64,000 nt of DNA from a bacterium (GCA_965202625.1 CBDBBI010000010.1:2624001-2688000), one strand, 5' to 3'; positions 6,072 through 30,463 are shown, numbered from the stretch's first letter. Notes: generated from the letters alone by a model not told the origin. A program made the numbers and translations.

Positions 6072-6213
6072 ATGTTTCCCTTGACCTGCTGTCAACCCTT
6101 TTGTGATGACGGAGTTTCTGGTTTGCTCTTTGTTGTTCTTGGGGGAGAGGTATGGGTAATGTTGAGGCAGCGCCTTAGTGTGGCGACGAAAGCCCTAGTG
6201 TAGGGTCGTTATC

Positions 6214-6930
6214 ATGGAATTTGTGAAATTCATTTTCCTTCGATCTTTGTGCTGGGTGATCTCTATATTCTTAGTACCCGTTTGCTGGGTGGCGGCGCTT
6301 TCCTTTTGCCGGAACCTTCTGTCCGCTTTTCTCATACAGGGTTCAGGAGCTAGCGCTTATCTTCCCACACATCAGGGCGGGGCTTTTCTCATCGGTGTTG
6401 TGGTCTACGCTTTATGGCATCGATTTTGGCCGCCTGAGTTCCTATACGCTTTCGTTCATGAGTTTACGCATCTCACGTTTGCTCTGATCACCGGCAAAAA
6501 GGTGCGTCGCTTTGAGGTGACGCGAGGGAGCGGGAAAGTGGTTTTGAGCGGTACGAACCCCATCATCGTCTTGGCGCCTTATTTTTTCCCTCTTTTGACA
6601 ATCATGGTGCTGATTCTGGGCACCCTCATCAGTTGGGGGTTGGGGTATGGAAAAGTTCACTGGGCGACGGCGTTTTTCTCTGGCCTAACGCTTTGTTTGC
6701 ACGTCCTTATGACTATCAAGGTGCTGGGCGTGCCGCAGCCCGATATTGCGCGCAGCGGGCGAATTTCCTCTTTGGTGCTCATCTTCTTGTTGGGGGTGGT
6801 TTTTGTTGGCGGCGCGGCGCTCGCCTCCATGGGGGGTTGGAGTATACTCGTTTCGTATCTCACGTCTATTTGGCATGAAAGTTGGGATACGTATGCATTT
6901 TTGTTTGGCTTGATGAAGCGCGTTTTATGA
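6214..6930 (+). CDS. M50-like membrane metallopeptidase
   Basis: Multiple TM segments, HEFTH zinc motif, LAPY motif, downstream Asp. Confidence 0.75.
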   Translation: MEFVKFIFLRSLCWVISIFLVPVCWVAALSFCRNLLSAFLIQGSGASAYLPTHQGGAFLIGVVVYALWHRFWPPEFLYAFVHEFTHLTFALITGKKVRRFEVTRGSGKVVLSGTNPIIVLAPYFFPLLTIMVLILGTLISWGLGYGKVHWATAFFSGLTLCLHVLMTIKVLGVPQPDIARSGRISSLVLIFLLGVVFVGGAALASMGGWSILVSYLTSIWHESWDTYAFLFGLMKRVL

Positions 6931-7559
6931 GGTGGGAATCTGGACGCATGGCTTTTGCATCTTGGCGATGCCGATTTTGTTTGATGATTTTTTTGAGCGC
7001 GTTGAGCACAGGCTGTGCCTATGAAGTTTTTAGAACGCAAAACATTTCTCAGCCGACAAAAATACGCGCCCTCCGGCGTATTGCCGTCACCCCTTTTCGT
7101 TATTCGAGTGACTGGACGGGACTTTTCCGCAAGATCTACAGGCAAGCAGGTTTAGCAATACCCAAAGGAAAGAAGGTCGAGTCGGTGGAGGGGACGTTTT
7201 TGATTCGGGACGCTATCACCTCCAAAGGATATGAGGCTGTTTCATTCCCCAAAGAATTGCGGATAAAAAAAACAGGTGGTTCACTGCGCTCGGAGGGGAA
7301 AACTGCGCAAACCTACCCATTAATACCCAGAAATTCGGGCGCCCAAGCCATCATATTTGCTAGAGGCAGCCACCTCTGCAGCGATATGGAATCGTGCGTC
7401 GCCAAAGTGGAAATACTTTTGGTGGATGCCAGCTCTGGCGAAGAACTATGGAAATCGCGGGCGAGAGGAACGACGGGACTGTCCCAGGGGGATGAAATGA
7501 AAGCCGCCGTTCAGGGCGCGCTCGAAGAATTTCCCGACAATTTTCCGGTTTCTGGTTGA
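6927..7559 (+). CDS. Hypothetical lipoprotein
   Basis: Lipobox-like LSTGC; C-terminal ILLVDASSGEELWK beta motif; overlaps upstream stop (ATGA). Confidence 0.6.
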   Translation: MRWESGRMAFASWRCRFCLMIFLSALSTGCAYEVFRTQNISQPTKIRALRRIAVTPFRYSSDWTGLFRKIYRQAGLAIPKGKKVESVEGTFLIRDAITSKGYEAVSFPKELRIKKTGGSLRSEGKTAQTYPLIPRNSGAQAIIFARGSHLCSDMESCVAKVEILLVDASSGEELWKSRARGTTGLSQGDEMKAAVQGALEEFPDNFPVSG

Positions 7560-7604
7560 AGTCAAGAAATTTCATCCATATCCATGCCCGATACCAGGCG
7601 GCCA

Positions 7605-7728
7605 TGACGATTTGTCGTTTTTGATGCGGACGTATATGACAAAATGACAATTTCATTCATGTTTTTTCTTTCTATCTCATTGATATAGAAGTTGTTATAG
7701 AATAGAGAAAAATGGCATAACGTTTGCA
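7605..7728 (+). promoter_or_regulatory. Sigma54 promoter with putative enhancer and IHF sites
   Basis: TGGCATAACGTTTGCA (7713-7728) fits -24/-12 spacing; TGAC-N5-GTCA-like sites at 7605-7617 and 7637-7649; IHF-like TATCAA-N4-ATA on minus strand at 7673-7685. Confidence 0.75.
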
Positions 7729-7738
7729 TTAAAGATCA

Positions 7739-7893
7739 GAAGCGCTAATCAGGGCGTTCATAGGCGGCACGCCTTGGGTAGCCGGCGAGAGGAGTTGCCG
7801 ATTGGGTCGGCGCTCCTCCGCCACGCTATTATTTCTCTCACGTTTCTCCTCCCTTCGTGAGAGCCTCCTCCCGGAGACGGGAGGAGGTTTTTT
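7739..7893 (+). ncRNA. Candidate sigma54-dependent small RNA
   Basis: No + strand ORF between promoter and terminator; several stable hairpins; anti-SD sequence in a loop. Confidence 0.6.
7864..7893 (+). terminator. Rho-independent terminator
   Basis: cctcctcccg-GAGA-cgggaggagg followed by TTTTTT. Confidence 0.9.
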
Positions 7894-8029
7894 ATTTGCT
7901 TCTCGGCGACATGATTTTCCCCTGCGTGGTTTGCAATCGGGGGATGTTGGTTTATAGTGCATTTTGCATGAAATCATGCGGCGTTGATTAGGTGTTGAGA
8001 ACTCATCCATTAAAAGTGAGGAATCGGAA

Positions 8030-9028
8030 ATGGTTACAGGCAAAGTGCGCCTCGCCTCTATCGGGCTTGGGTGGTGGGCTGGTGTGTTAGCGGATGCTTT
8101 GAATCGAAGTGGTTCCGGCGAAGTAGTTTCAGGTTTCGCGCGGAGTGCAGACGCCCGAAAGATGTTTTCCGAGAAATACAGTTGCCGAGCGGCGGGCAGA
8201 CTAGACGATATATGGAAAGACCCGGAGGTAGACGGCGTTCTCATCGCGACGCCTCATTCCACGCACCTTGACATGATCTCCCAAGCCGCATCGGCCGGCA
8301 AGCACGTATTCGTCGAGAAACCTCTTACCTTGACGGCCGAAGAGGCAAAAAAGGCGATTGAGGTGACGTCAAGCGCGAATGTGACTCTACAAGTGGGACA
8401 TCATCGCCGCCGATTCGGTGCCAATCGCAAGATCAGGGAAATGATAGACGGCGGCGAGCTGGGTATGCTGCACCAGCTGGAAGCTAATCTCTCGCTTCCT
8501 ATGGGGTTTGAACCCAGACAAGGTTGGCGCAACGATGCGGAAGAATGCCCGGTGGGATCCATGACGGGTCTCGGCGTGCATATGGTCGATAATCTGCAAT
8601 ACTTGGCTGGTCCCGCAAAAAAAGTATGTGCGTTTAGTAAAAAATTATTGGGCAAAACGAATCTCGACGACACGACGAGCATTATCATTGAATATGAGCG
8701 CGGCCCGTTGGGCTATATTGGAACCACTTTTGTTATTCCCAAAATTTGTGATACCGCGGCTTTTGGTACGAAAATGAGAGCATACAGTCTTGAGGAAGGC
8801 GGAAAACTTCATGTGGCCAAGGTAGGCGAAGAGGTGTTGACGGAGGTTGCTGTCGTAGGCGGAGACGCCTTGGCGGATGAGATGGATGAATTTTGCAAGT
8901 GCATCCGGGGAGAGGCGACTCCTGAAACGGGCGGACACGAGGGGCTCGAAGTCGTCTCGGTGCTTGAGGCGGTTGTCAAGAGCGTGAACACAGGCCAGGT
9001 CGTGGAGGTGGCGTCCGTTCGGGGATAA
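8030..9028 (+). CDS. Gfo/Idh/MocA-family oxidoreductase
   Basis: IGLGWWA, IATPHSTH, AGKHVFVEKPL, VGHHRRF, GVHMVD. Confidence 0.93.
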   Translation: MVTGKVRLASIGLGWWAGVLADALNRSGSGEVVSGFARSADARKMFSEKYSCRAAGRLDDIWKDPEVDGVLIATPHSTHLDMISQAASAGKHVFVEKPLTLTAEEAKKAIEVTSSANVTLQVGHHRRRFGANRKIREMIDGGELGMLHQLEANLSLPMGFEPRQGWRNDAEECPVGSMTGLGVHMVDNLQYLAGPAKKVCAFSKKLLGKTNLDDTTSIIIEYERGPLGYIGTTFVIPKICDTAAFGTKMRAYSLEEGGKLHVAKVGEEVLTEVAVVGGDALADEMDEFCKCIRGEATPETGGHEGLEVVSVLEAVVKSVNTGQVVEVASVRG

Positions 9029-9055
9029 GTCTTGAGCGTTGTTTTGGAGGGAAAA

Positions 9056-11302
9056 ATGTCTCGGATGACTTATGTTGGCGCGTCGCCGACCAAAGCTGAC
9101 GCCCTGGCGAAAGCGGTTGGTGACACCATCTATGGCGATGATTTCCATATGCCGGGGGAGATATACGGCAAAGTTGTTCGCGCCCCAATGGCTCCGGCAA
9201 GAATCAAAAAGATAGACGCGAGCAAGGCGCTTGCACTGCCGGGTGTGCATTGTGTTTTAAGCGCGCAGGACATTCCTGGCAAAAATGCCGGCCGTTATCC
9301 TGATTTTCCTGTACTCGTAGATAATGTTGTCACCGGTATCGGCGATGCTGTTGCCCTCGTGGCTGCGGACACCAGGGATTTGGCGGATGAGGCGGCCACG
9401 CTCGTAAATGTCGTTTATGAAAGGATTTCGGGCGTTTATGACTTCACTAGTCTTGCGCAAGGCGAGGTGATCTGCGACTGGAAAACGGAGAAGGGGAATG
9501 TGGCTGCTGGGTTCGAAAAAGCGGACATGGTGGTAGAGAATATCTATTTTTCCGCTTGTCTTGATCACGCGTTCATTGAACCTGAAGGTGGCGTCGCCTG
9601 GATCGATGAGCGTGGCGTGGTGAACATTCGAGTCCCCACCCAAATGATAGAGAATTATCAAAACGTGGCGAGAATTTTAGGTTTGCCATTGAGCCGCGTT
9701 CGATATGATTGTCCGATGTTGGGCGGGGCCTTTGGCGGGAAAGAACATCCGCTTTTGGGTGCCTTTATGGCGTTGTTGGCGATGGAAACGGGACGTCCGG
9801 TGCACATGGCCTATTCCCGAGAGGAAACCATGAACACCGGTAGTAAAAAACACCCTTTCCTTATGAAATACAAGACCGGTGCCACGAAAGATGGAAAACT
9901 CACAGCACTTGAGGTGGATATCATCGGCGATGCGGGGGGGTATGCGGCCAACAGCAAGGGTCTGCTTTTAGGGGCGCTTGTGTTGAGCGGCGGACCCTAT
10001 GAGATCCCCAACGCAAGAGGCCGTTCGCGTGCGGTCAAGACGAACAACCCCTTTACCGAGGCGATGCGCGGCGTGGGGGCGAACCAAGTATGTTTCGCCT
10101 ATGAGGCCCAAATGGATGAGCTGGCGTGTCAATTAGGGATGGACCCCTTGGAGTTTCGCGAGAGGAATTTTATCAAAAAAGGCGCGACGCTCATGCAAAA
10201 ACAACCCGTGCCCTCACGAGTGATGTTGCCCGAGTTGGCTGAGAAAATCAAAAAGCTCGTCGGTCGCTCGGTAGGACGCACGCCCGAGAAAGATCATGGC
10301 CCATGGCGCGTGGGTGTCGGGATTATCGCAAATATCGGGGGATATGGGAGACCCAGGAACGAGGGGGAAGTCTATGTGTCCATTGATGCCGACGGCAGCG
10401 TCAACGTGCGCACGGGTGCTTCTGACGTGGGAGCTGGCCAAACCCAGACGAATCGCCAAATCGCGGCCGAAGCCCTAGGCGTTTCTTTAGAAAACGTGAC
10501 GGTGACCATGTCGGATTCTCACGTTACTCCCCTTGTGGGCGTGACGGCTGGTAGTCGGCAGACGATGATCTCGGGCGGTTCTTGTTATCGGGCATCAACG
10601 CAGTTGCGGGAGAGGGTGCTTAGGGGCGCAGCGGAGCTGCTCGAAGCCGCGCCCGAGGATTTGGAGATGAAAGATGGAAGGATTTCTGTGAAAGCCGCCC
10701 AGGAGCGTGCTGTCGGTTTCACCGAGGCTATCGCCCAGTGCGGGAGGATGGGAATCGACCTTCACACAGTGGGAAAAATGAAAATCGGCGTTCATGAGTA
10801 TGAGGGGAATGAACGATATGGCGATGCCGGTGGCTGGATGGATTATGTTTTTGGCGTTCACGCCGCCGAAGTGGAAGTGAACGTCGATACGGGGGAGCTT
10901 CGCGTGCTGAACTACTGGTCGGGGCATGACGTTGGCCAGGCCATTAACCTGCAGCATGTGGAGGGGCAGTTTGAGGGCGGCGCGATGATGGGAGTCGGCC
11001 ATGCCTTGACTGAGGAGGTTCTTACGCAAAAAGGTACGCTTCTCAACAATGAATTTCATGGCTATCTCATTCCCACCTCGGTAGATGCGCCTGAGTGGGA
11101 CAACGTCATACTGGAGTCAGGCGAGGGGCTTGGACCTTATGGGGCGAAAGGGATTGGAGAGCCCCCCTGCACCGCGGGCGCCGCGGCTGTAGCCTGTGCG
11201 GTTGGCCAGGCGATTGGCGCGCGCATTACGCGCATCCCCATCACGCCAGATCACGTGATGGAGACGTTGGGCCGTCTGAACAAAAATGGAAGCCAAAACT
11301 AA
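9056..11302 (+). CDS. Xanthine dehydrogenase-family molybdopterin-binding subunit
   Basis: GGAFGGK, AMRGVG, GSRQT, GQFEGGAMMGVGHAL, GAKGIGEP motifs. Confidence 0.93.
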   Translation: MSRMTYVGASPTKADALAKAVGDTIYGDDFHMPGEIYGKVVRAPMAPARIKKIDASKALALPGVHCVLSAQDIPGKNAGRYPDFPVLVDNVVTGIGDAVALVAADTRDLADEAATLVNVVYERISGVYDFTSLAQGEVICDWKTEKGNVAAGFEKADMVVENIYFSACLDHAFIEPEGGVAWIDERGVVNIRVPTQMIENYQNVARILGLPLSRVRYDCPMLGGAFGGKEHPLLGAFMALLAMETGRPVHMAYSREETMNTGSKKHPFLMKYKTGATKDGKLTALEVDIIGDAGGYAANSKGLLLGALVLSGGPYEIPNARGRSRAVKTNNPFTEAMRGVGANQVCFAYEAQMDELACQLGMDPLEFRERNFIKKGATLMQKQPVPSRVMLPELAEKIKKLVGRSVGRTPEKDHGPWRVGVGIIANIGGYGRPRNEGEVYVSIDADGSVNVRTGASDVGAGQTQTNRQIAAEALGVSLENVTVTMSDSHVTPLVGVTAGSRQTMISGGSCYRASTQLRERVLRGAAELLEAAPEDLEMKDGRISVKAAQERAVGFTEAIAQCGRMGIDLHTVGKMKIGVHEYEGNERYGDAGGWMDYVFGVHAAEVEVNVDTGELRVLNYWSGHDVGQAINLQHVEGQFEGGAMMGVGHALTEEVLTQKGTLLNNEFHGYLIPTSVDAPEWDNVILESGEGLGPYGAKGIGEPPCTAGAAAVACAVGQAIGARITRIPITPDHVMETLGRLNKNGSQN

Positions 11303-28259: not shown

Positions 28260-28335
28260 GCTGGCGTAGCTCAGTGGGTAGAGCGGCTGATTTGTAATCA
28301 GTAGGTCGGAGGTTCGAGTCCTCTCGCCAGCTCCA
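28260..28335 (+). tRNA. tRNA-Thr(TGT)
   Basis: Cloverleaf, anticodon loop TTTGTAA, GTTCGAG T-loop, CCA end. Confidence 0.96.
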
Positions 28336-28470
28336 TGGCGGAGTGGATTCCCGAAAGCCCCAAAGGGCGATCCGCCCCCTGGACCTTTGTCCCGTCTCTC
28401 CCCTCTTCGCGTTTTTGGGGCGCGGCGGATTCGACGAAGGTTTGGTTTTTTGACGAACGGCGGGTTTCGG

Positions 28471-28555
28471 GGGGAGGTTCCCGAGTGGCCAAAGGGATCA
28501 GACTGTAAATCTGACGGCTCAGCCTTCGGAGGTTCGAATCCTCCCCTCCCCACCA
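28471..28555 (+). tRNA. tRNA-Tyr(GTA)
   Basis: Anticodon loop CTGTAAA, long variable arm, CCA end. Confidence 0.96.
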
Positions 28556-28602
28556 ACTGACACATCGTTGCGGCGGCAGGGAAGAGCGTTTTCGATTCAG
28601 AG

Positions 28603-28678
28603 GCGGGAATAGCTCAGTTGGTAGAGCATCAGCCTTCCAAGCTGAGGGTCGCGGGTTCGAGCCCCGTTTCCCGCTCCA
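28603..28678 (+). tRNA. tRNA-Gly(TCC)
   Basis: GCGGGAA acceptor stem, loop CTTCCAA, CCA end. Confidence 0.96.
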
Positions 28679-28863
28679 AGACTATTCGAGGCTTTATCTG
28701 CACCTTTTTTTCGATAGATCGAACATTTATTTTTCGCGGCTCCGGGTTGCTCTGGTTGAAGTTGGTTGTATCATCCGTTGAGGGAGAACCTTCGTGCTCA
28801 TCATCCATGAGAGGTTCTTCTGGGTAAAATAAAATGTATTCTTCGCGACTGTGACGTAAGCCA

Positions 28864-28936
28864 GCCCACGTAGCTCAGCCGGCAGAGCACTTCCTTGGTA
28901 AGGAAGAGGTCACCGGTTCAAGTCCGGTCGTGGGCT
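28864..28936 (+). tRNA. tRNA-Thr(GGT), CCA not encoded
   Basis: GCCCACG/CGTGGGC acceptor stem, loop TTGGTAA. Confidence 0.95.
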
Positions 28937-29160
28937 CAATGGCGTGGAATTCATTGAAATTTTGAAACCCCGACGTTATTTTGGGGGCACAGCGAATTTT
29001 TGAGATTCGCGGGTTCTGCTGTTCCGGATAGACAAAGTTTCGATGCAGCGTGTATAAAGCAAGCGCGTTTTCGAGGAGTCCTGAATTAGGGGGGGAATGG
29101 CTTCCTCGCCCCGTCGCTGAAGATTATTCTTGGAAGTTCAAACAAGAGGGGAGCAGCTCC

Positions 29161-30339
29161 ATGGCGAAGGCGAAGTTTGAGCGGACGAAGCCGCACGTGA
29201 ACGTAGGGACGATAGGTCACGTTGATCACGGGAAGACGACTCTGACGGCGGCGATCACGCGGCATTTGTCTGGGAAGGGGATGGCGCAGGAGGTAGGGTT
29301 TGACGAGATAGACAAGGCGCCGGAGGAGCGCGAGCGAGGGATAACGATAGCGACGGCGCATGTGGAGTATGAGACGGAGCGTCGGCACTACGCGCACGTG
29401 GATTGTCCTGGTCATGCGGATTATGTGAAGAACATGATAACGGGCGCGGCGCAGATGGATGGTGCGATTTTAGTGGTTTCTGCTGCGGATGGTCCGATGC
29501 CGCAGACGCGGGAGCACATTCTGTTGGCGCGCCAGGTGGGGGTTCCGTATATTTGCGTGTATTTGAACAAGGTGGACATGGTGGACGACGAGGAGTTGCT
29601 GGAGTTGGTGGAGTTGGAGGTTCGGGAGTTGCTCTCGACGTATGAGTTTCCTGGAGACGACATACCAGTGGTTCGCGGCTCTGCGCTTCGGGCTTTGGAG
29701 GGGAGCGATACGGGTTCGATAGATGATTTGATGGAAGCGGTGGACGAGTATATTCCTGAGCCTGTTCGGGACGTTGACAAGCCGTTTTTGATGCCTGTGG
29801 AGGATGTGTTCTCGATATCGGGTCGAGGGACGGTGGCGACGGGTCGGGTGGAGCGCGGGGTTGTGAACGTGGGGGACGATGTAGAGATAGTGGGGATAAC
29901 GGATACGCGGAAGACGGTGGCGACGGGCGTGGAGATGTTTCGCAAGTTGCTGGATCAGGGTCGTGCGGGCGACAACGTGGGAGTTTTGCTTCGGGGTGTG
30001 AAGAAAGACGAGATAGAGCGGGGGCAGGTTTTGTCGGCGCCCACGTCAATACTGCCGCATCTGAAGTTCAAGGGCGAGGTGTATATTCTGACGAAGGAGG
30101 AAGGGGGTCGTCACACGCCGTTTTTTAACGGGTATCGTCCACAGTTTTATTTTCGGACGACGGATGTGACGGGTCTGGTGACGTTGCCGGAGGGTCGAGA
30201 GATGGTGATGCCCGGAGACAACGTGTCTCTGGACGTGGAGTTGATAACGCCGATAGCGATGGAGCGCGAGTTGCGGTTCGCGATACGCGAGGGTGGGCGC
30301 ACGGTGGGTGCCGGCGTCGTCACCGAAGTCCTCCAGTAG
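29161..30339 (+). CDS. tuf: Elongation factor Tu (copy 1)
   Basis: [27 protein letters not shown]. Confidence 0.99.
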
Positions 30340-30387
30340 CCGTGAAAAAAAGGTAGCGTTTGGAGTCGTTTGTCAGGTTTTTATTAA

Positions 30388-30463
30388 AGGCCAGTGGCTC
30401 AATTGGTAGAGCACCGGACTCCAAATCCGGCGGTTGGGGGTTCGAGTCCCTCCTGGCCTGCCA
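30388..30463 (+). tRNA. tRNA-Trp(CCA)
   Basis: AGGCCAG/CTGGCCT stem, loop CTCCAAA, CCA end, upstream of secE. Confidence 0.96.

Follow-up and report, generated by a model that had tools for sequence, protein, structure and literature searches.

A probable stand-alone, sigma-54-activated small RNA gene of the Nitrospinaceae

What is encoded between a hypothetical gene and a molybdoenzyme operon in the Nitrospinaceae, where a stretch devoid of convincing open reading frames (ORFs) carries the marks of a complete transcription unit? The locus in question occupies positions 7605-7893 of a 64,000-nucleotide (nt) stretch of a bacterial genome (GCA_965202625.1, CBDBBI010000010.1:2624001-2688000), which we refer to as the window and to which plain coordinates refer. 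An initial annotation, made from the sequence alone, had read it as a sigma-54-driven small RNA (sRNA) that displays an anti-Shine-Dalgarno (anti-SD) motif in a hairpin loop, and had proposed an Rfam scan, a covariation analysis of homologues and a search for rpoN as checks. Two TGAC-N5-GTCA-like dyads, an IHF-like site, a -24/-12 box, about 155 nt of hairpins and a strong terminator were all found within the interval, each at the position assigned to it. The analysis reported here makes it probable that the locus is a stand-alone, Nitrospinaceae-wide sRNA gene of about 155 nt, activated through sigma-54 and an enhancer, with a core made of hairpins 1 and 2, a linker and a pyrimidine element, and with a predicted action in trans that does not involve Hfq.

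All parts of the unit lie on the plus strand. Upstream activator site 1 (7605..7617), read directly as TGACGATTTGTCG, is a TGAC-N5-GTCG dyad, and site 2 (7637..7649, TGACAAAATGACA; family consensus TGACAwwwTGnCAAyTT) precedes the -24 box by about 64 nt. They are followed by a predicted IHF-like bending site at 7673..7685, TATCTCATTGATA, one mismatch away from YAANNNNTTGATW, which is the reverse form of the IHF consensus, and by the sigma-54-type -24/-12 promoter at 7713..7728 (TGGCATAACGTTTGCA, TGGCAT-N5-TTGCA). The RNA itself is placed at 7739..7893, its predicted 5' end being set by the promoter and its 3' end by the T-run. It comprises hairpin 1 (7744..7782), whose apical loop carries the family-invariant AGGCGGCAC; hairpin 2 (7784..7822), which is almost invariant (GGCG..GGAG..GAU.GG.UCG..CUCC.CCGCC); a single-stranded A/U-rich linker (7823..7834, ACGCUAUUAUUU; family pattern ACGnnAUyAU); a variable module, hairpin 3 (7835..7863), in which CTCTCACG (7835-7842) and CGTGAGAG (7856-7863) enclose a 13-nt loop, TTTCTCCTCCCTT (7843-7855); and an intrinsic terminator (7864..7893) with a pyrimidine-only 5' arm CCUCCUCCCG, a GAGA loop, the 3' arm CGGGAGGAGG and U6. 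The terminator has a 10-base-pair (bp) G+C stem (7864-7873 with 7878-7887), ends in T6 at 7888-7893, and is the only terminator-like site within 7300-8300.

Folding of 7739-7895 yields four hairpins at -82.7 kcal/mol (z = -6.2), compared with a mean of -57.1 (standard deviation 4.1) for shuffled sequences, and none of the 200 shuffles equalled it. The only ORFs over the RNA are a 51-amino-acid frame on the plus strand and a 171-amino-acid antisense frame, and the RNA is considered non-coding because its stems covary and its insertions and deletions are not multiples of three. The initial view of an ORF-less unit that has its own terminator and is preceded by enhancer sites and a sigma-54 promoter is thus borne out.

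At gathering thresholds no Rfam family matched the RNA; the sole matches in the window are five tRNA genes far away, clustered at 28260-30460. With permissive E-values applied to region 7400-8200, two sub-threshold matches appeared and were set aside as motif-level likenesses. The first, anti-hemB (RF02837, Burkholderia), reached 22.7 bits versus a gathering threshold of 49.5 on 7836-7895, which covers hairpin 3 and the terminator only. The second, ar14 or alpha-r14 (RF02344), reached 20.6 bits versus 58.8 in the CCUCCUCCC-rich 3' part, a score explained by the CCUCCUCCC-like word in the hairpin 3 loop.

The whole unit, including enhancer and promoter, is present in 22/22 same-genus genomes at 72-77% identity (BLAST of 7600-7900). 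A covariance model, R1, was built from 29 genus copies and run over a phylum sample of 51 genomes, the window's own included. It scores 166.7 bits on the window (7735-7897) and matches 36 of the 41 other Nitrospinaceae genomes and none of the 10 genomes of other families. By genus, the matches amount to 22/22 in g1, 4/4 in g17, 1/1 in g18, 1/1 in g19, 2/2 in g20, 1/1 in g21, 5/5 in g2, 0/1 in g3 and 0/4 in g22. The g3 non-match is uninformative, since in that genome (G024) the contig includes just 220 nt ahead of the Gfo gene and breaks off where the RNA is expected. An exact-pattern scan of one genome per species across 185,579 species returned 25 stretches, and all six with a stated taxon belong to Nitrospinota or Nitrospinaceae. 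Two 55-nt BLAST matches in another family (G030, G033) lie inside a protein-coding gene and were dismissed as chance.

The losses in g22, whose genomes measure about 2 Mb, are of another kind. There the syntenic site is intact but shortened: an M50B-like gene is followed by about 260 nt and then by the Gfo gene, both the RNA and the hypothetical gene being deleted (R1 unfiltered, at most 6.1 bits). At these sites (L110:5048-5306, L111:4776-5036) the homologue of hypothetical gene 6882-7559 has been lost along with the RNA, and these genomes also lack the kinase-linked regulator described below. From this pattern of gene content, the hypothetical gene may be part of the same functional module as the RNA and the regulator.

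Promoter and activator sites are retained along with the RNA. Scored against the consensus TGGCAC-N5-TTGCW, a GG-N10-GC box that agrees at 9 or more of the 11 positions occurs in 38 of 43 copies (23/23 genus primary copies, 15/15 copies from other genera, 0/5 genus second copies), and its distance to the modelled RNA is 12-22 nt in 37 of the 43, the exception among the 38 being G014. A dyad with at most one mismatch to TGAC-N5-GTCA lies upstream of 35/43 copies, and the conserved dyads precede the -24 box by about 60-110 nt. Site 1 is within one mismatch of this dyad in 22/23 genus primaries (L038 has TGACGATTTTTCG) and is replaced by a TGCCAC-N-CTGGCA dyad in g2 and g18. The element TATC-N3/4-TTGAwA, corresponding to the predicted IHF-like site, is kept in genus copies, and the genome holds four HU/IHF-family genes. 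It also holds one rpoN gene (Sigma54_DBD, C10:595079-596575, 201 bits), and rpoN was found in 41/42 family genomes.

The G014 locus (L035:2889-3030) deserves a separate mention. An insert of about 68 nt, resembling a partial duplicate of hairpin 1, is located there between the sigma-54 box and hairpin 1, placing the box 83 nt from the RNA body versus about 15 nt elsewhere; the locus is present twice in the assembly (C1, C8).

The secondary structure is further reflected in the substitution pattern. In the alignment of 43 copies from 8 genera to R1, which is fitted to the model and thus leans towards structure, standard pairs fill 96.2% of pair cells versus 43-53% when partners are slid by 1-3 columns, and 23 of 49 pairs show changes on both sides; 0/500 column shuffles reach the observed values. 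The same helices were obtained by RNAalifold on an independent MAFFT alignment. Compensatory double changes are seen in 9 of 16 pairs in hairpin 1, 5 of 7 in hairpin 3, where that hairpin is present, and 6 of 9 in the terminator, and in hairpin 2 three of 17 pairs covary and seven never vary. The family-wide invariants are AGGCGGCAC in the hairpin 1 loop and GGCG..GGAG..GAU.GG.UCG..CUCC.CCGCCAC in hairpin 2. The UyAU core of the linker is conserved, and the linker is unpaired in the folds of 8/11 representatives; in the folds of the window, L080 and L082, an outer long-range helix pairs part of it.

This pattern shifts attention away from the anti-SD loop, which the initial annotation had regarded as the functional core. 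The hairpin 3 loop, UUUCUCCUCCCUU, is specific to the window genome; most of the genus has (A/U)CUACCCCCU instead, g17 carries a different pyrimidine-rich insert at this position, and hairpin 3 is absent or replaced in representatives of g2, g18, g19 and g20. Because hairpin 3 is variable or absent across relatives, its CUCCUCCC loop, not kept even within the genus, is not the conserved feature, and the two copies of CUCCUCC that are conserved are paired in stems (hairpin 2 3' arm, terminator 5' arm). What survives of the motif is weaker: a pyrimidine-rich stretch always follows the A/U linker, either as a loop or as the terminator 5' arm, which is mostly pyrimidine in 43/43 copies. As judged from conservation, the putative functional core is hairpin 1 with its AGGCGGCAC loop, hairpin 2, the A/U linker and the pyrimidine-rich element, not the CUCCUCCC loop. 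The suggestion that the RNA possibly represses mRNAs with GGGAGGAG-type ribosome-binding sites, which would be its putative targets, came from the earlier reading.

Which protein might activate such a promoter? Only two proteins in the genome carry a true sigma-54 activation domain (Sigma54_activat). One is a REC-AAA-HTH response regulator (G000:C10:2602796-2604172) whose gene comes directly after that of a 730-amino-acid PAS histidine kinase, in an operon about 28 kb from the RNA; it resembles AtoC, NtrC and ZraR, all under their cut-offs. The other has the domain order GAF-AAA-HTH. Every genus with the RNA also encodes the response regulator as a full-length orthologue (70-88% identity). In g22, which retains rpoN and the molybdoenzyme operon, the best match reaches 48-49% identity over residues 123-456 and is the GAF-type paralogue. 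This co-absence of regulator and RNA is a hint rather than proof, since it represents a single evolutionary event. As to autoregulation, no dyad was found upstream of the kinase-regulator operon, just a CIRCE-like inverted repeat, GCACTC-N9-GAGTGC (L094:3440-3475), between the divergent hrcA and PAS histidine kinase genes.

A third, AT-rich sigma-54 promoter, TGGCATAAATTTTGCT, was noticed at L095:9770-9915 (= G000:C10:2088770-2088915), 2.6 kb downstream of the GAF-type gene. Its upstream dyad differs (ACGATAAATCGT; ACGAT-AA-ATCGT), and beyond the promoter lie an ORF for a small membrane protein, a gene for a universal stress protein and a RimK-like gene. The different dyad of this promoter would suit two activators that divide the work between them.

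The same enhancer appears to be used a second time. Among 399 sigma-54-like sites in the genome, an AT-spaced TGAC-N5-GTCA dyad (at most one mismatch) lies 40-200 nt upstream at only two, the window locus and C10:1745033 on the minus strand. The latter (L096:4820-5215, minus; = G000:C10:1744820-1745215, outside the window) has a TGACATTTTGTCA dyad, TGACA-N3-TGTCA, a half-conserved second site, a TATC-N4-CTGATA element and the promoter TGGCACGTTTCGTGCA (TGGCAyGATTCGTGCA). About 186 nt of structured, non-coding sequence follow and end in a terminator-like hairpin, ahead of which stands an invariant unpaired AUUCCUUCC. By BLAST, this second RNA is present in 21/22 same-genus genomes and in 0/19 family genomes outside the genus, and it is not homologous to the window RNA.

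Evidence of transcription comes from contigs of four metatranscriptome runs of one study; such contigs show neither ends nor levels, and RNAs that are rare or short go missing from them. A single contig of 153 nt covers 7755-7907 and nothing else (1/4 runs, depth 2.8). Runs X1-X3 have no contig on 7739-7893, and 7908-7992 is bare in all four runs, gaps that were not counted as evidence given the loss of rare and short RNAs from contigs. No contig on 6184-7655 was present in any of the four runs, so the RNA signal is not DNA carry-over.

Taken together, the probable sequence of events would be as follows. An NtrC/AtoC-type enhancer-binding protein, most likely the response regulator G000:C10:2602796-2604172 encoded after the PAS histidine kinase, would activate from the two dyads, whose centres lie roughly 80 and 110 nt ahead of the -24 box, aided by an IHF-like bend between dyads and promoter. 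Sigma-54 RNA polymerase would then transcribe the RNA of about 155 nt from the 7713-7728 box and come to a stop at the strong intrinsic terminator; the operon's own promoter lies about 40 nt further on. The RNA would act in trans without Hfq, most likely by means of the loop, linker and pyrimidine segments that it exposes, which would pair with mRNAs.

A number of observations weigh against this scheme. The 5' end and size of the RNA, and its dependence on sigma-54 and on the activator, are predicted. The RNA evidence consists of one low-depth contig from a single study, and its extension 14 nt beyond the T-run means that some read-through exists. Co-absence of the regulator and the RNA is limited to one lineage, and the GAF-type protein may be the activator instead. 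The two genomic matches to dyad plus promoter compare with 0.76 expected by chance and are not significant alone. Nor is sigma-54 the sole route to these RNAs, because promoter-less second copies are kept in five genus genomes. As for targets, three exposed segments were compared by RNAduplex with positions -70..+25 of 3,605 genes, called crudely in this single genome; the best z values were -3.2 to -4.1, and no outlier appeared. The best exact seed complement genome-wide, UGCCGCCU just before the SD sequence of a Tim44-like gene, was rejected since it is not conserved, 13 relatives reading GGCCGCAU. The almost absolute synteny with the Gfo operon also fits a role in cis, and the near-invariance of hairpin 2, even in stems that are free to covary, fits protein binding at least as well as pairing.

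Two further leads on targets were set aside: a 7-bp match at the gpsA start codon is at chance level, and full-length duplex energies with the neighbouring genes and the kinase-regulator leader are meaningless. The second copies mentioned above lie 5-7 kb downstream of the primary locus, flanked by genes for an ARPP-1-domain protein and a sodium:solute symporter (L017:3237-3394(-), L018:8631-8788(+), L019:9378-9535(+), L020:3114-3271(-), L021:10664-10821(+)). They have no dyads, four of the five have no GG-N10-GC box at all, and none has a clean sigma-54 box. Their hairpin 1 shows compensatory changes of its own, which indicates that the copies are maintained.

The near-invariance of hairpin 2 (7/17 pairs fixed over 43 copies and 8 genera) keeps a protein-binding role as the main rival mechanism. 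Under the same promoter logic, the RNA would sequester or scaffold a protein, with hairpins 1 and 2 as recognition elements. The invariant AGGCGGCAC loop of hairpin 1 would suit such a role, as would the fact that no pairing target emerged. Hfq, CsrA and ProQ were not found in the genome, which is 99.69% complete (a control search for Hfq matched 5/14 reference genomes), and any pairing would thus be chaperone-independent or proceed via an unfamiliar protein; that neither Hfq nor ProQ turned up as a possible aid to pairing is again in favour of protein binding. However, no candidate partner presents itself, given that CsrA was not found and that the RNA lacks the repeated GGA or CA-type motifs of known sponge RNAs. 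The conserved unpaired linker with a pyrimidine-rich stretch behind it is, moreover, an arrangement typical of pairing sRNAs, and the lack of predicted targets rests on a crude single-genome method. We regard protein binding as unlikely, though as the most credible of the rivals.

Could the RNA instead serve the Gfo/Idh/MocA-molybdoenzyme operon as a sigma-54-driven leader or attenuator, the operon being controlled by regulated read-through of the terminator? The neighbourhood makes this a serious rival, since the Gfo gene follows the RNA at nearly every locus, on the same strand and immediately downstream in 37/38 promoter-bearing copies (23/23 genus loci, 14/15 in other genera). In the window, the operon begins with a Gfo/Idh/MocA oxidoreductase gene (8030-9028, +) and continues with a gene for a xanthine-dehydrogenase-family molybdopterin subunit (9032-11302, +), both assigned by Pfam and NCBIfam matches; these are neighbours and not part of the RNA, as are the M50B-like gene and the hypothetical gene (6882-7559) upstream. 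Read-through past the T-run points in the same direction, and in the genus the arms of hairpin 2 and of the terminator share GGAGG/CUCCUCC words that could swap partners. These words, though, are not kept in g2, where the terminator reads CCCCCCGC/GCGGGGGG, and g22 retains the operon without the RNA.

The operon also has a promoter-like element of its own, as had been proposed for the downstream oxidoreductase at the outset. A sigma-70-like promoter, TTGCAA-N16-TATAGT (7931..7958, +; TTGCAA at 7931, TATAGT at 7953-7958), is the only such match ahead of the 8030 gene. It lies between terminator and gene and is kept family-wide, as GGTTTTCAAGCG...TTGGGTTATGGTGC in the genus and as TTG-N2-TAT(G/T)(G/T)T in other genera. 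Operon contigs begin downstream of it (three runs, at 7993, 7996 and 7997; the remaining run, at 8023), and none bridges 7908-7992. Further, the second copy in G043 (L080) sits at an unrelated locus, behind a TPP-enzyme gene, where it retains the dyad, the sigma-54 box, the RNA and the terminator, and the end of a convergent gene comes 43 nt downstream; this copy has no co-oriented downstream gene, the sole co-oriented ORF there translating to Arg/Gly/Pro-rich nonsense. A leader function seems improbable to us, and clearly more so than protein binding.

Least credible of all, and hardly worth entertaining, is the explanation that the conserved block is the 3' end or terminator of hypothetical gene 6882-7559, or an untranscribed intergenic structure, with a fortuitous -24/-12 match: 32 genome sites, mostly intragenic, do match TGGCAC-N5-TTGCW at 10/11 positions or better, so that single matches arise by chance, yet the GG/GC box is held 12-22 nt before the RNA in 37/38 promoter-bearing copies (all but G014) over 8 genera whose flanks have diverged, the dyads and the TTGATA site are co-conserved with it, L080 took promoter and dyad along to its new place and left the upstream gene behind, and one RNA contig covers the RNA where none covers 6184-7655.

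Some features of the operon were observed in passing. Its 5' leader contains a small hairpin, GCATG-AAAT-CATGC (window 7966-7979), conserved in the genus with compensatory changes (AGTG/CACT, GTAC/ATAC) and followed by a conserved GAATTCATCCATTCAG word. Orthologues of the molybdopterin subunit in G047, G048, G054, G056 and G057 (68-70% identity, g2 and g20) have one in-frame TGA each, and those in G045 and G051 have one TAA each. The in-frame TGA could be a selenocysteine codon or mark a broken gene.

The preferred reading, a sigma-54-activated, trans-acting sRNA, has parallels in well-studied systems. Vibrio Qrr sRNAs are controlled by LuxO and sigma-54 and need Hfq, and the LuxO site is TTGCA-N3-TGCAA. 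As with Qrr, an NtrC-type response regulator working through a sigma-54 promoter would have an sRNA gene among its main outputs, the same enhancer stands before more than one sRNA gene, and the dyad has a 13-bp 5-N3-5 geometry, here TGACA-N3-TGTCA. Unlike Qrr, the RNA belongs to a different phylum in which Hfq was not found in the genome studied, and it shows neither sequence or structure similarity to Qrr nor an Rfam Qrr match. Enterobacterial GlmY/GlmZ are controlled by GlrK/GlrR (QseE/F), sigma-54 and IHF, the GlrR site being TGTC-N10-GACA. The arrangement of a sigma-54 promoter, activator sites and an IHF site before a structured, terminator-ended sRNA of 150-200 nt is alike, and one two-component system governs two sRNAs there and may do so here. 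In contrast to GlmY/GlmZ, the two RNAs are homologous neither to each other nor to GlmY/Z, the dyad differs from the GlrR site, and the kinase-regulator operon is located about 28 kb off and does not adjoin the RNA.

Likenesses also exist at the level of possible pairing segments. RsaE/RoxS-type sRNAs use C-rich loops in Hfq-independent systems, and the unpaired C-rich stretch of most genus copies (CUACCCCCU) could likewise pair with G-rich ribosome-binding sites without Hfq; unlike in RsaE/RoxS, the C-rich loop is not family-conserved, there is no homology, and the promoter type is another. The cuckoo RNA, or alpha-r14 (RF02344), consists of 2-4 adjacent hairpins with CCUCCUCCC in each loop (PMC4615179). 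The window RNA has a similar anti-SD word, CUCCUCCC, in one hairpin loop; it differs from cuckoo RNA in that the word is displayed in one loop only and in the window genome only, that the conserved copies are in stems, and that the Rfam score is far below threshold. On sequence comparison, the RNA is a new sRNA family, which would function like the sigma-54-controlled sRNAs of Proteobacteria and is a member of none of their families. Going by titles and the opening lines of abstracts, no open-access paper or bioRxiv preprint on a Nitrospina small RNA or on sigma-54-linked RNA regulators was found.

Nitrospinaceae account for a large share of ocean nitrite oxidation, and the locus offers a testable regulatory module in them, consisting of kinase, regulator, enhancer, sigma-54 promoter and sRNA. 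It would extend sigma-54-controlled sRNAs to a phylum in which no known sRNA chaperone was found, which bears on how RNAs of this kind locate their targets, and the calibrated covariance model can be used to annotate the RNA in metagenomes and metatranscriptomes. A bolder idea, which we hold to be doubtful, is that the direct regulon of the PAS-kinase/NtrC-type system comprises small RNA genes only, namely the family-wide RNA and the genus RNA of about 186 nt. The system would then be a LuxO/Qrr-like switch working without Hfq, ProQ or CsrA, in which hairpins 1 and 2 would embody a new way of recognising targets or proteins without a chaperone and which could tune molybdoenzyme or nitrogen-redox metabolism. 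If true, such a switch would be operating in the main marine nitrite oxidisers.

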